A stretch of DNA of 55,466 bases from an uncultured delta proteobacterium (GCA_903923175.1 CAIXWQ010001095.1:1-55466); one strand, 5' to 3'. Positions 4,343 through 29,660 are shown, counted from the stretch's first letter. Notes: generated by a model from the sequence alone, not told the origin. Translations and numbers: made by a program.

Positions 4343-4443
4343 CACGACGCGTCACGATGCCCCTCTCGGGGCGAGATTCGCCGCCTACATGAGCGCACCG
4401 GCGCGGGCCACCTTCTTGACGGAGGGCACCCTGGGTCCGTAGG

Positions 4444-4481
4444 GTGGGGCGGTTCGTGGTGGAAAGTGCCAAGCCGTGGTG
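4444..4481 (+). promoter_or_regulatory. MraZ operator (GTGG repeats at 10-bp period)
   Basis: GGGG 4446, GTGGT 4456, GTGCC 4466, GTGGTG 4476, about 70-110 bp upstream of mraZ. Matches the known GTGG-N6 MraZ-binding repeats. Confidence 0.7.
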
Positions 4482-26205: not shown

Positions 26206-26997
26206 TCAGCCGCCGTCGGTCCGCTCGGCCGGCTCGGTGGGCTCGGTCGCGTCCGTGGCGTCGACCGGCGAGGCGACGGGCTCTTCGCCGCCGCCCTTCG
26301 GGAGCCCCTCGCGCAGCCGGTAGCCGACGCCGGGCTCGGTGAGCAGGTAGCGCGGGCGGGCGGGGTTGGCCTCGAGCTTGTGCCGCAGCTGCGCCATGTA
26401 GACGCGGAGGTAGTGCGTCTGCCCCATGTACGGCGGGCCCCAGACCTCGCGCAGCAGCTGCCGGTGCGTGATCACCTTGCCGATCGAGCGCGCCAGCGTG
26501 GACAGGAGCTTGTACTCGATCGGCGTGAGCCGGATCTCCTTGCCGTCGACGGTCACGCGGCGCACCGGCATGTCGAGCTTCAGGTCGCCCGTCTCGACGA
26601 CCGCGCCCGGGTCGTCGCCAGCGCGCGCGGCGTGGCGGAGCGCGACGCGCATGCGGGCGAGCAGCTCGCTCGCGCCGAAGGGCTTGGTCAGGTAGTCGTC
26701 GGCGCCGCCGTCGAGCGCGGCGACCTTGTCGGCCTCCTGGCCGCGCGCCGAGATCACCACGATCGGCGTGCGCGACCACTCGCGCAGGCGCCGCGTGACC
26801 TCGAGGCCGTCGATGTCGGGCAGCCCGAGATCGAGCAGCACGATGTCGGGGTTCTTCGCCGCGGCGTCGGCGAGCGCTTGCTCGCCGCTCGTCGTGGTGG
26901 CGCAGCGATACCCGTTGGCGAGCAGCGTCGCGCGCAGGAAGCGCTGAAGCTCGGGCTCGTCTTCGACGATGAGGGCGAGGGGCTCCGGAAGGGCCAT
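26206..26997 (-). CDS. kdpE: KdpE-type OmpR-family response regulator
   Basis: LIVEDE, LLDLGLPDIDG, RLREWS, LDGGADDYLTKPF, LTPIEYKLL, HYLRVYMAQLRHKLE.NPARPRYLLTEPGVGYRL. Confidence 0.9.
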   Translation of the reverse strand: MALPEPLALIVEDEPELQRFLRATLLANGYRCATTTSGEQALADAAAKNPDIVLLDLGLPDIDGLEVTRRLREWSRTPIVVISARGQEADKVAALDGGADDYLTKPFGASELLARMRVALRHAARAGDDPGAVVETGDLKLDMPVRRVTVDGKEIRLTPIEYKLLSTLARSIGKVITHRQLLREVWGPPYMGQTHYLRVYMAQLRHKLEANPARPRYLLTEPGVGYRLREGLPKGGGEEPVASPVDATDATEPTEPAERTDGG

Positions 26998-27036
26998 ATG
27001 GGTTCCCTATCTAGCCTGTCGTGTTGCGGGTGCGAA

Positions 27037-28203
27037 TCAAGGTGGCGACAAGGTAGCGCCCCGACTCGAATCGCGCAGCGAGGGCGGGGCGCTCGCAGGC
27101 TCTTCGGTGAGCGGCGGCGGCGGCTCGCCGAGGGGCAGCGAGAACGCGAAGGTCGTCCCGTCGCGTCGGCGCTCGACCCAGGTCCGACCTCCGTGGACCA
27201 TCAGGATTCCTCGGCAAATCGCGAGTCCGAGCCCGCTGCCGACCCTGCCTTTGGAGCCAGCCGCGCGGTAGAACTTCTCGAAGACGTGCGCCTCCTCTTC
27301 GGGCGCGAGCCCCGGGCCCCAGTCACGCACCTCCACCGTCAGCGCGCCGTCGCTGGCGCGGGCGCGGACCTCGATGGGCGAGCCGGCGGGCGTGTACTTC
27401 AGGGCGTTGTCGAGGAAGTTCGCCAGGACCTGCTCGATCAGCGTCGGATCGATGGCGACCAGCGGCAGGTCGTCGGCGACGTCGGTCCGCACCGGGCGCC
27501 CTTGGAGCTGCGTCTCGAGCCGACTGAGCGCGGAGCCGATGACCTCCTCGATCGGTTGCCAGTCCTTCTCGGGGCGCACGGAGCCCGCCTCGAGCCGCGT
27601 CATCGCCAGCAGGTTGGTCACCAGGTTGCCGAGGCGCGAGGCCTCGCTGGCGATCGACTGCAGCAGGGCCACGCGCGTCGGCGCGTCGAGACGATCGCGA
27701 TCCTGCATGAGCGTCGTGGCGGCGCCGGTGATCGCGGCGAGCGGCGTGCGCAGGTCGTGCGAGACCACGCTCAGCAGCACGTTGCGCTGCCGCTCGACCT
27801 CCACCTCCATGCGGGCGTGCTCCGCGCGCTGCTCGTGCTGGCGGGCGCGCTCGGTGAGCGTGCTGATCAGCAGCCCGACGACGAGCATGACGATGAAGAC
27901 GAGGAGGTACTTGATCTCCGACGTGAGCAGCGAGCCGTACGGCGGCACGAAGAAGTAGTCGAAGAGCGCGGTGCCGGTCACCGTGGCGAAGATCGCGGGG
28001 AGCCGGCCGCATCGCGTCGCGACCACGACGATCCCGAGCAGGAAGATCATCGCCAGGTTGGCGAGCTCGACCGACTGGAAGAGCAGCGCCGACGTGATCG
28101 TGCAGGCGAGCACGACCGCGGCCGCCTCGACCCACCGCCGCGCGCGCTCGCGCGTCTCCGACGTCGAGGTCGAGGTCGAGGAGAGCGAGAGCGCCGGTCT
28201 CAT
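27037..28203 (-). CDS. Truncated KdpD-like sensor kinase (DUF4118 membrane domain-HisKA-HATPase only)
   Basis: NLAMIFLLGIVVVA...FDYFFVPPY (KdpD TM domain), SHDLRTPLAAI, NFLDNALKY, DWGPG, FEKFYR, GSGLGLAIC. No N-terminal KdpD/USP domain and no GAF domain. Confidence 0.88.
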   Translation of the reverse strand: MRPALSLSSTSTSTSETRERARRWVEAAAVVLACTITSALLFQSVELANLAMIFLLGIVVVATRCGRLPAIFATVTGTALFDYFFVPPYGSLLTSEIKYLLVFIVMLVVGLLISTLTERARQHEQRAEHARMEVEVERQRNVLLSVVSHDLRTPLAAITGAATTLMQDRDRLDAPTRVALLQSIASEASRLGNLVTNLLAMTRLEAGSVRPEKDWQPIEEVIGSALSRLETQLQGRPVRTDVADDLPLVAIDPTLIEQVLANFLDNALKYTPAGSPIEVRARASDGALTVEVRDWGPGLAPEEEAHVFEKFYRAAGSKGRVGSGLGLAICRGILMVHGGRTWVERRRDGTTFAFSLPLGEPPPPLTEEPASAPPSLRDSSRGATLSPP

Positions 28204-29606
28204 CGGACGAACACGTAGGCTTGCGCCGAGAGATCCGCGCTCGAGGGGGCGCCGCCGCTGGCGTCGTAACAGGTGCACGCGCACACGTCGCCGTGCCGGG
28301 TGTTCGCGTCGGTGCCGCAGGAGGACCCGGCGCCGCCCACGCCGAGGCGCGAGTCGGGCGAGTCGCAATTGGTCTGCTCGTTGCCGAGGATGCCGAGCCG
28401 CACGGACATCGCGCCCGCCACCACGTTGAGCCCTTCGCGGTTGCAGTTCTTCTGGAGCGCGGAGCCGGGCAGCGCGTCGAGCCACGCCCCGCGCCCGCCT
28501 CCGCTGGTCGCCACGTACGCCCCGGTCGCGAAGAGCTGCGCGAGCGACGCAGGCGGGTACGTGAGCCCTCCCGGCAGGCCGCTGGTCGGCAGCCCGAGCA
28601 GGACGTACTTGGTCGGCGTCGCCGAGGAGGGGGCCATCGCGACGCGCAAGGCGTGGACCGGGATCGACAGGAAGCCTTCGAATTTCGCCTCGCTGGCCGC
28701 GAGATCCGGCGAGCCCGCCAGCAGGTTCGAGTCGGTCCAGAGCGCCGCTTCGTAGCTGAACGTCGGCGCGCTCTTCGAGGCCTTCAAGACGAGCGTCCAT
28801 CCGCCGACGTCGGCGCCCGCGCCGACCATCGCGCAGTACGCGCTCCACGGCGAGGCGGCGCCGGCGCGCGTGGAGGCGAGGGGGTAGGTCGCGCTCGGCG
28901 CGCCGGGATCGCCCGCGAAGATCTGATCGCACGACGTCGCGAGCGCGCACTCGTTCGCGGTGCAGAGCCGCCCGCCGCAGTCGGCCGCGGCGCTGCAGTG
29001 CTTGCCCACGGCGCAGCCGCGGCCGCACGCCACGCCGCAGTCGACGTCCGCCTCGCCGGCGTCGAGCACGCCGTTGTTGCAGCCGACCGGCACGCAGACG
29101 CCGAACGTGGTGCACGCGGTGCTCCCACAGTCGACGCCGGCGTGGCAGCGCCCGCCGTTCGGGCACTTGGTGCAGTGACCGCCGCAGTCGACGTCGCTCT
29201 CGTCGCCGTCCTGAACGCCGTCTCGGCAGCTGTCGGCGTCCGGGGCGAGCAGGGTGTCGGCGGCGTCCGCGGCGTCCGCCGCATCCGCCGCGTCGGCGCC
29301 GGACACCGCGTCGAGCGCGTCGGTGGTGAACGTCGAATCGGTCGCGTCGGCGACGTCTTCGGCCGCGTCGCCGCCCCCCTCGACGGCGTCGGCGCCGAGC
29401 GTGTCGGTGGCGTCGTCTCCCGACTCGGCGACCGTGGTGTCGGCGGCGCCGTCGAGCACGGCATCGTCGCCCACGCTCGCGTCGCCGACCTCGTCCGCGG
29501 TGTCCTCGCCGGCGCCGTCGGTCGACTCGAGCCCCAGCCCCGCAGCGTCGATGGAGCAGGATGCGGTCGAGAGGAGCGCGAGCAGCAGCGCGACACGGCG
29601 CGTCAT
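28200..29606 (-). CDS. Secreted/lipoprotein with acidic linker, Cys-rich repeats and fibrinogen-like (YCxxxxxGGW) domain
   Basis: Signal peptide ...LSTASC; D/A/T-rich linker; two C.DG..D..E.DVDCG repeats; SCDQI...AYCAM...GGWTLVLK. Confidence 0.78.
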   Translation of the reverse strand: MTRRVALLLALLSTASCSIDAAGLGLESTDGAGEDTADEVGDASVGDDAVLDGAADTTVAESGDDATDTLGADAVEGGGDAAEDVADATDSTFTTDALDAVSGADAADAADAADAADTLLAPDADSCRDGVQDGDESDVDCGGHCTKCPNGGRCHAGVDCGSTACTTFGVCVPVGCNNGVLDAGEADVDCGVACGRGCAVGKHCSAAADCGGRLCTANECALATSCDQIFAGDPGAPSATYPLASTRAGAASPWSAYCAMVGAGADVGGWTLVLKASKSAPTFSYEAALWTDSNLLAGSPDLAASEAKFEGFLSIPVHALRVAMAPSSATPTKYVLLGLPTSGLPGGLTYPPASLAQLFATGAYVATSGGGRGAWLDALPGSALQKNCNREGLNVVAGAMSVRLGILGNEQTNCDSPDSRLGVGGAGSSCGTDANTRHGDVCACTCYDASGGAPSSADLSAQAYVFVR

Positions 29607-29660
29607 CGGGCCATGCTAGCATGATTTCCGGCGAATCCGAGGCGACCCGAGGGTGGCGCT

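Follow-up and report, generated by a model that had tools for sequence, protein, structure and literature searches.

The window analyzed here, a 55,466-nt contig from an uncultured deltaproteobacterium (CAIXWQ010001095.1; contig C1095 of the metagenome-assembled genome [MAG] G000, which comprises 10.7 Mb in 1422 contigs at ~73% G+C), carries a three-gene operon of a lake-water myxobacterium, in which a gene for a Cys-rich lipoprotein precedes those for a minimal KdpD-type histidine kinase and a KdpE-type response regulator. We tentatively favor the reading, which we rate a little short of even, that the trio contains a pared-down KdpD/KdpE system that still reports K+ availability and has the lipoprotein as a passenger. 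On comparative grounds the pair itself is most likely still a K+ sensor, because members of the kinase family that lack the KdpD N-terminal domain (KdpD_N) are encoded beside K+ importers of three classes (KdpFABC, Kup, and KimA). The locus represents a known system in a lineage-specific variant rather than a new type of receptor.

The layout agrees with the description in an earlier note on this DNA: three co-oriented genes on the minus strand in the order lipoprotein, kinase, regulator, an ATGA overlap, a 39-bp gap, and no K+ pump genes nearby, with no kdp gene found in the 55-kb window. The features, in window positions, are as follows.

29613..29621, minus strand: extended −10-like element TGCTAGCAT, 6 nt upstream of the gene 1 ATG, recognized by the conservation of its pattern
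28200..29606, minus strand: gene 1, for a 468-residue Cys-rich probable lipoprotein (P0002) with a C-terminal fibrinogen/intelectin-like domain (translation, orthologues)
29556..29606, minus strand: signal peptide and lipobox Cys17, MTRRVALLLALLSTAS followed by C, read by eye, with the Cys conserved
29232..29555, minus strand: Asp/Ala-rich low-complexity linker, residues 18-125, variable among orthologues
28944..29231, minus strand: two Cys-rich repeats, DGDESDVDCGGxC..., residues 126-221, conserved in orthologues
28203..28943, minus strand: predicted fibrinogen/intelectin-like domain, residues 222-468 (NF040941, AlphaFold2, Foldseek)
28200..28203, minus strand: ATGA stop/start overlap of gene 1 and the kinase gene, with the TGA of gene 1 within the kinase ATG
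27037..28203, minus strand: gene 2, for the 388-residue minimal KdpD-type histidine kinase P0001 (Pfam, NCBIfam, PDB)
27817..28134, minus strand: DUF4118 four-helix membrane domain, residues 24-129 (Pfam, 1.2e-29)
27127..27786, minus strand: transmitter, HisKA (residues 140-207) and HATPase_c (residues 252-359) (Pfam)
26998..27036, minus strand: 39-bp spacer between the kinase and regulator genes (sequence)
26206..26997, minus strand: gene 3, for the 263-residue KdpE-type OmpR-family response regulator P0003 (Pfam, NCBIfam, PDB)

The minimal kinase and its regulator

As the earlier note had it, the kinase consists of the KdpD membrane domain and a HisKA/HATPase transmitter. Pfam finds DUF4118, HisKA, and HATPase_c only, and none of KdpD_N (PF02702), Usp, or GAF; indeed, HisKA begins 10 residues past the membrane domain, and there is therefore no room for a GAF domain. 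The top NCBIfam family is KdpD (NF007793, 281 bits, with the next family at 149). This score is far under the equivalog cut-off of 1123 because only a third of the KdpD model is covered, kinase residues 124-362 aligning to model positions 648-886 of 895. Among PDB entries the kinase matches the DHp-CA region of E. coli KdpD (6lgq, E 4e-41) and the KdpD transmembrane (TM) domain (2ksf, E 2e-18), and in an alignment of related kinases (A2) its H-box, with H149, and its N-box, G1, F, and G2 motifs are intact. The regulator contains Response_reg and Trans_reg_C domains and has KdpE as its top NCBIfam family (NF007820, 269 bits against a cut-off of 325, next family 199). E. coli KdpE (4kny) matches it over its full length with 246 bits, compared with 171 for the next regulator, and the recognition helices are nearly identical, HYLRVYMAQLRHKLE in the window and HYLRIYMGHLRQKLE in E. 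coli KdpE. These family and structure matches bear out the derivation of the pair from KdpDE. The pair shares with E. coli KdpD/KdpE the DUF4118 four-helix domain, a KdpD-type DHp/CA, and a KdpE recognition helix that is almost unchanged, but differs from it in lacking KdpD_N, Usp, GAF, and adjacency to kdpFABC, and in reaching only 281 of 1123 and 269 of 325 bits of the respective cut-offs.

The earlier note had also placed the K+ input of KdpD in the missing domains. This does not agree with the published model, in which K+-sensing sites are proposed for the TM/GAF part of E. coli KdpD (PMC11018627); of this part, the window kinase retains the TM section. The outer loops of the kinase are very short (FQSVEL and PPYGSLLTSEIK) and much like those of its closest relatives in A2, P0013-P0015, one of which, P0015, is encoded in a context with no fibrinogen-like neighbor. 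A scan of the whole genome found two DUF4118 domains in all, that of the window kinase and one on contig C175, and no KdpD/E-like pair other than that of the window is present in the genome. The C175 protein (L095, G000:C175 367-2541, 724 residues, with an orthologue in G003:C195) has DUF4118, ~200 unassigned residues, GAF, HisKA, and HATPase. We rejected it as a true KdpD C-terminal half, its transmitter not being KdpD-like; no receiver gene is seen on the short contig. As a further observation, kinases of the clade linked to the lectin-like gene carry a Pro-rich C-terminal extension ending in G-x-T/A-L-S-P/R-P (window 27040-27090), which the other minimal kinases in A2 do not have.

K+ importers beside related kinases and control of the kdp operon

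Kinases of this family without KdpD_N are numerous, with dozens of protein clusters of 350-390 residues; many have no GAF domain either, and they are repeatedly encoded beside K+ importers. In a Polyangia MAG (L122), kdpF-A-B-C is followed by a 110-residue open reading frame (ORF), a minimal kinase, and KdpE, and L140 is similar. Kup-linked forms have the order kinase, regulator, Kup in G003, G006, and G008 and a Kup gene divergent from the pair in G039; Kup neighbors are also present in L134 (Polyangiaceae), L171, and L178 (the Kup-linked loci being L090-L093, L134, L171, and L178). KimA-linked forms include L119, whose neighbor matches PDB 6S3K with E 8.6e-154, and L121, L132, L139, L150, and L289, which have KimA-like neighbors; the kinases of L119 and L289 are 53-56% identical to the window kinase. 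These importer-linked kinases come from several phyla and mostly have KdpE-type partners (for L121 and L289 the partner is classed as an OmpR-type regulator), and the three importer families, KimA, Kup, and KdpFABC, are unrelated. The myxobacterial Kup- and KimA-linked cases have the same GAF-less architecture as the window kinase; the window pair, however, follows a lectin-like lipoprotein gene instead of flanking a K+ importer. No paper on Kup-linked or KimA-linked KdpD_N-less forms was found in the literature searched. Among the 80 best kinase loci in species genomes, full-length KdpD accounts for 57, mostly beside kdpABC. The simplest reading of these contexts is that the TM-plus-transmitter core, together with KdpE, is a portable K+ sensor module.

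In a quick maximum-likelihood tree of the kinases, which did not include P0018 of L119, the lectin-linked kinases form a clade with 100% support, in a basal polytomy with other GAF-less kinases including the KimA-linked P0019 (L289). Kinases linked to kup or kdp are placed in a separate clade, mixed with GAF-bearing ones, and the GAF domain has therefore been lost repeatedly. Because the kinases of genus g3, a sister genus whose pairs are Kup-linked, lie in this different clade, the g3 pairs are homologues and not strict orthologues of the window pair. G000 has Kup paralogues on C1214, C1140, C1200, and C1093. The kinase-linked Kups of g3 are not mutual closest relatives (64-77% identity patterns), and with these patterns no G000 orthologue of the g3 Kup could be assigned.

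In g3, whose genomes have ~70% G+C, an AT-rich island separates KdpE from kup (L091 about 4441-4470, on G003:C99, with equivalents in L090 and L092). In G003, the element TTTTTTATACTTTCTTGATG ahead of kup agrees with the E. coli KdpE operator at 15/19 positions, inverted relative to kup, and the reverse complement of the g3 kup-upstream element CATCAAGGAAAnATAAA likewise fits it at 15/19. The CATCAAGGAAAnATAAA element has no counterpart in G000, and an operator shared between g3 and G000 was rejected. In L171, the element TTTACGACTTTTTTACG precedes the kinase-regulator-kup operon. A scan for the E. coli-type KdpE box TTTATA-N5-TTTACA with at most two mismatches gave no match anywhere in G000, an assembly in which contig ends truncate the promoters of kdpF and of the closest kup. 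This box, which is E. coli's, was also not found upstream of the trio, kdpF, or kup in G000 and G001, including the complete kdp upstream region of G001. The readings of KdpE boxes, as of the σ54 elements described below, are pattern matches, for which genome-wide box counts are the only statistics.

The domain that the kinase lacks is present elsewhere in the genome. Its sole KdpD_N (PF02702) is encoded by a separate gene on C789 (L003, G000:C789 2641-11658), where kdpB and kdpC are followed by a ~375-residue KdpD_N+Usp gene that has the Walker A motif GVGKT and no membrane or kinase part. Further along are genes for a receiver-domain protein, a small HisKA/HATPase protein, an NtrC-type σ54 activator, and a HAMP/PAS kinase. 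The genes kdpF and kdpA lie on C1032 (kdp-locus stretch, G000:C1032 1832-2168), and other kdp loci are L098, L099, and L100. As shown by Silberberg et al. (2024, PMC11018627), KdpB is inhibited by the N-terminal domain of KdpD, which acts as a serine kinase. According to the same study, several phyla, Myxococcota among them, mainly have a short KdpD/Usp chain encoded after the pump genes; in some species the histidine-kinase part is a separate chain, usually TM/GAF/DHp-CA, and in some kdp is regulated by a separate two-component system. The present genome shares with these split systems a KdpD_N/Usp chain directly downstream of kdpC and, elsewhere, a separate membrane KdpD-type histidine kinase with a KdpE-type regulator, this kinase being without the usual GAF as well. 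Unlike in them, the presence of one chain does not go with that of the other across the family, and NtrC and σ54 appear to control the kdp operon.

The comparison covered nine species genomes of the family. Of its genera, only g1 (G000 and G001) has both the kdp/KdpD_N half and the kinase pair. Genera g2 and g4 have kdpFABC and KdpD_N/Usp with no DUF4118 kinase, and g3 has the minimal kinase and KdpE with no kdpA and no KdpD_N, as does G039 of another family. KdpD_N/Usp and the receiver protein are syntenic with kdp in g1, g2, and g4, and the NtrC-type activator and HAMP/PAS kinase lie beside the kdp cluster in g1 and g2 and were not found in the g4 kdp stretch examined. In g2, a KimA-like permease adjoins KdpD_N/Usp. 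A conserved 27-residue ORF precedes kdpF, and σ54-like −24/−12 elements, read by eye like the palindromes below, lie upstream of the small ORF before kdpF (TGGCACGTCGGCTGCT in G004, TGGCACGCCCTGTGCT in L122). GG-N10-GC together with a conserved CTGCT occurs upstream of kdpF in G001, G002, and G005, while in G000 the spacing is off, and TGCA...TGCA palindromes of the kind bound by NtrC-type activators are also found upstream of kdpF. These elements are suggestive of NtrC/σ54 control of kdpFABC. Because sister genera hold either kdpFABC or the pair alone, and because the kdp promoters look σ54/NtrC-type, the window pair probably does not control the distant kdp operon and is probably dispensable for kdpFABC expression. 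The comparison further suggests that myxobacterial kdp operons are run by the serine-kinase chain and NtrC/σ54 and not by KdpDE.

The lectin-like lipoprotein and its link to the kinase

The product of gene 1 is a probable lipoprotein, as judged from a signal peptide and lipobox read by eye; Cys17 and the following S-[ILV]-D-x-x-GLG are common to four orthologues. Orthologues in G001 and in metagenome contigs are 63-80% identical, and each lies directly upstream of the kinase. The linker (residues 18-125) differs among them in both length and sequence. Cys-rich repeats of the gene 1 type are widespread, in paralogues from the same genome as well as in relatives, and homologues contain Pfam PF13948.

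The fibrinogen-like character of the C-terminal domain, recognized in the earlier note, is upheld by several approaches. NF040941 (GGGWT_bact, "fibrinogen-like YCDxxxxGGGW") matches the domain with 27.7 bits against a cut-off of 30. Pfam gives no fibrinogen-domain match (PF00147) to the gene 1 product itself, and PF00147 (Fibrinogen_C) is present in homologues at 35-42% identity, one of which, in Nannocystis, is so named. In the PDB, a profile of the gene 1 family matches intelectins and fibrinogen chains, in both cases in the N-terminal sub-domain. In addition, an AlphaFold2 model of the 247-residue domain, built from 30 sequences (alignment A1, the domain with 29 homologues), has a pLDDT of 92.5 and a pTM of 0.92, and its top Foldseek matches are the intelectins 7e1e, 4wmq, and 4wmo (E 1.7e-6 to 2e-5, TM-score 0.50-0.55, probability 1.00), followed by FGL1, ficolins, and angiopoietins. 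The assignment of a predicted fibrinogen-like lectin fold therefore stands. With intelectins (X-type lectins) and fibrinogen-related domains, the domain has in common the predicted fold and the YC...GGW(T) motif of the N-terminal sub-domain, here YCAM...VGGWT. The resemblance to the best matches, however, is only 0.50-0.55 in TM-score and 14-18% in identity, and unlike intelectins the gene 1 product is a lipoprotein, has Cys-rich repeats, and is operonic with a kinase. We take it to be a surface or periplasmic envelope protein that may bind carbohydrate. Bacterial fibrinogen-like proteins of the NF040941 type are common in Myxococcota. One genome of the same order, G011, encodes >25 paralogues of a ~300-residue fibrinogen-like domain protein on many contigs, a large expansion for a genome of 3.3 Mb.

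Gene order, the CGATGA overlap, and the flanks are kept in G001, where the kinase is 74% and the lipoprotein 63-68% identical to those of the window, and in the metagenome lineages L113/L114 and L115/L116, with kinases 80-87% identical; the CGATGA sequence itself is identical in the window, G001, L113, and L115. The synteny that the earlier note had proposed to check holds, with ATGA coupling in every close relative found (G001, L113-L116), but it is confined to this genus-level clade of kinases with at least 74% identity, in which all six lineages seen keep the coupling. No lectin-like neighbor occurs next to the next-closest kinases (55-59% identity) whose context was read, or at any of the best 80 related-kinase loci in species genomes. 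Conversely, among 80 metagenome loci that encode members of the lectin-like family, the next gene downstream is never one for a histidine kinase, receiver, or GGDEF protein (0/80); in two (L245, L279) a Ser/Thr kinase gene follows after 54 nt. A general link between fibrinogen-like and signaling genes was rejected on these 0/80 loci; a paralogue from the same genome, on C1121, merely precedes a receiver-domain protein. Separately, in L208 (4001-6765) a 4-bp overlap joins the gene for P0127, which has two fibrinogen-like domains in tandem, to the gene for a multi-pass membrane GGDEF protein (P0152). Because the kinase link is confined to one clade, is missing from both sets of 80 loci, and is accompanied by outer loops much like those of unlinked relatives, we take the lipoprotein to be a co-expressed, lineage-specific first gene and passenger, and not a ligand-binding subunit of the sensor.

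Alternative explanations and the surroundings of the operon

Under the reading we favor, the KdpD four-helix membrane domain, wired straight to DHp/CA, would sense K+ and, by homology, toggle the kinase and phosphatase states. The kinase would then set the phosphorylation of the KdpE-type regulator, whose recognition helix aligns closely with that of E. coli. The targets of this regulator may be K+ uptake genes in trans, namely the Kup paralogues, and perhaps its own operon; we think Kup-type importers in trans and the operon itself likelier targets than the distant kdpFABC. In the published model (PMC11018627), the KdpD_N/Usp chain beside kdpFABC would meanwhile act as a serine kinase on the pump. 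The lipoprotein, encoded by the first gene of the operon, would be made together with the sensor pair.

Several observations weigh against this reading. The trio has no K+ importer nearby, and no K+ gene was found in the close contexts of L117 and L120. The targets named for the regulator are candidates, and the kdpF (C1032) and closest kup (C1214) promoters are cut by contig ends in the fragmented assembly. The kup-linked pairs of the sister genus, with 46-48% kinase identity and a place in a different clade, are not clean orthologues. The ATGA coupling in all six lineages fits a functional partnership as well as co-expression, and the 4-bp coupling of a tandem fibrinogen-like protein to a membrane GGDEF protein in L208 points the same way. 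Finally, an experimental K+ response of a GAF-less KdpD was not found in the literature searched.

The pair could instead be one part of a KdpD split in trans, which together with the KdpD_N/Usp chain would control the distant kdpFABC, as in Deinococcus, Anabaena, and Alicyclobacillus. The position of KdpD_N/Usp directly after kdpC on C789 and the lack of any other KdpD/E-like pair in the genome fit this idea, as do reports of separate serine- and histidine-kinase chains and of separate kdp-regulating two-component systems (PMC11018627) and the Polyangia MAG (L122) in which a GAF-less kinase of the same type and KdpE directly follow kdpFABC. The earlier note had itself named such a split, with this KdpE regulating a distant kdpFABC, as what would overturn its proposal. 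One half of it is found, because a separate gene beside kdpB-kdpC encodes the KdpD_N/Usp part that the kinase lacks, but control of kdpFABC by this KdpE is disfavored, and the pair is probably uncoupled from kdpFABC: g2 and g4 have only kdpFABC with KdpD_N, g3 has only the pair, an NtrC-type activator lies beside kdp in g1 and g2, and GG-N10-GC elements precede kdpF. A σ54-type promoter cannot be driven by an OmpR-type KdpE, and no direct repeat resembling a KdpE box is present in the complete kdp upstream region of G001. On balance we regard the split as unlikely. Somewhat more doubtful still is that the pair has been repurposed to a non-K+ signal, for example membrane, ionic-strength, or turgor stress, with an unrelated regulon and the lipoprotein uninvolved. 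The loss of every cytoplasmic input domain of canonical KdpD and the absence of K+ genes nearby, and likewise at the close homologues L117 and L120, would agree with such a change, and one report (10.1101/2023.07.05.547876) describes direct targets of Caulobacter KdpE beyond kdp. Against it, relatives on both sides of the tree adjoin three unrelated K+ importer families, which is hard to explain unless the TM-plus-transmitter core senses K+, and the KdpE recognition helix is conserved.

To the proposal of the earlier note, in which the intelectin-like lipoprotein is the ligand-binding subunit of the kinase and a K+ sensor has become a sensor of extracellular glycans (prey or polysaccharide), we give the least credence. 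Its structural premises hold, the pair being KdpDE-derived and the lipoprotein of lectin type and coupled to it. Hardly any of the kinase is exposed outside the cytoplasm, six lineages keep the gene order and the ATGA overlap despite lipoprotein identities of 63-80%, and the long acidic linker could span the periplasm. The fibrinogen-like/GGDEF pair of L208 is a second 4-bp-coupled case, and at two loci of the family a Ser/Thr kinase gene follows after 54 nt. The arrangement would resemble intramembrane-sensing kinases that depend on accessory proteins, or the outer-membrane lipoprotein sensors RcsF and NlpE. The glycan-sensing step, however, is disfavored by the limitation of the association to one genus-level clade (0/80 family loci, 0/80 kinase loci) and by the K+ importers beside relatives. 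Moreover, the outer loops are much as in P0013-P0015, with no lectin-like gene in the P0015 context, and four-base overlaps are common in this GC-rich genome. Were this proposal true, the locus would stand among the few documented examples of a bacterial two-component system with a lectin as its recruited input module, and the fibrinogen-like proteins coupled to GGDEF and Ser/Thr kinase genes would work likewise. If, on the other hand, the pared-down K+ sensor is the right description, the trio itself adds little that is new, being one more example of KdpD modularity. The bare membrane-plus-transmitter core with KdpE beside Kdp, Kup, and KimA is of possible interest for K+ homeostasis: because it is found beside three unrelated K+ importers, the comparison argues that the KdpD core alone may be a sufficient K+ sensor.

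On one side of the trio is a divergent gene for an SNF2-type helicase and on the other a convergent gene for a PAS hybrid kinase; the trio therefore stands alone as a unit. Scans of the trio locus with Rfam and for promoters and terminators gave no matches, and those of the 39-bp spacer between the kinase and regulator genes gave no terminator-like or promoter-like site. The pattern TGnTAnnAT is found at the same place upstream of gene 1 in the window, G001, L113, and L115, the remaining upstream region being divergent. A σ70 consensus scan gave no match at the TGCTAGCAT element, which could possibly be an extended −10 giving a leaderless or near-leaderless mRNA. In L205 (ENA ERZ27313555, contig k141_444537, 6001-8304), a 490-residue kinase with a RisS_PPD+HAMP N-terminal half is followed by a regulator 100% identical to the window KdpE. 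The two halves of this kinase are joined exactly at the H-box SHDLRTPL, and its C-terminal half is 100% identical to the window kinase; most likely, another public assembly contains the same population and the L205 contig is chimeric.

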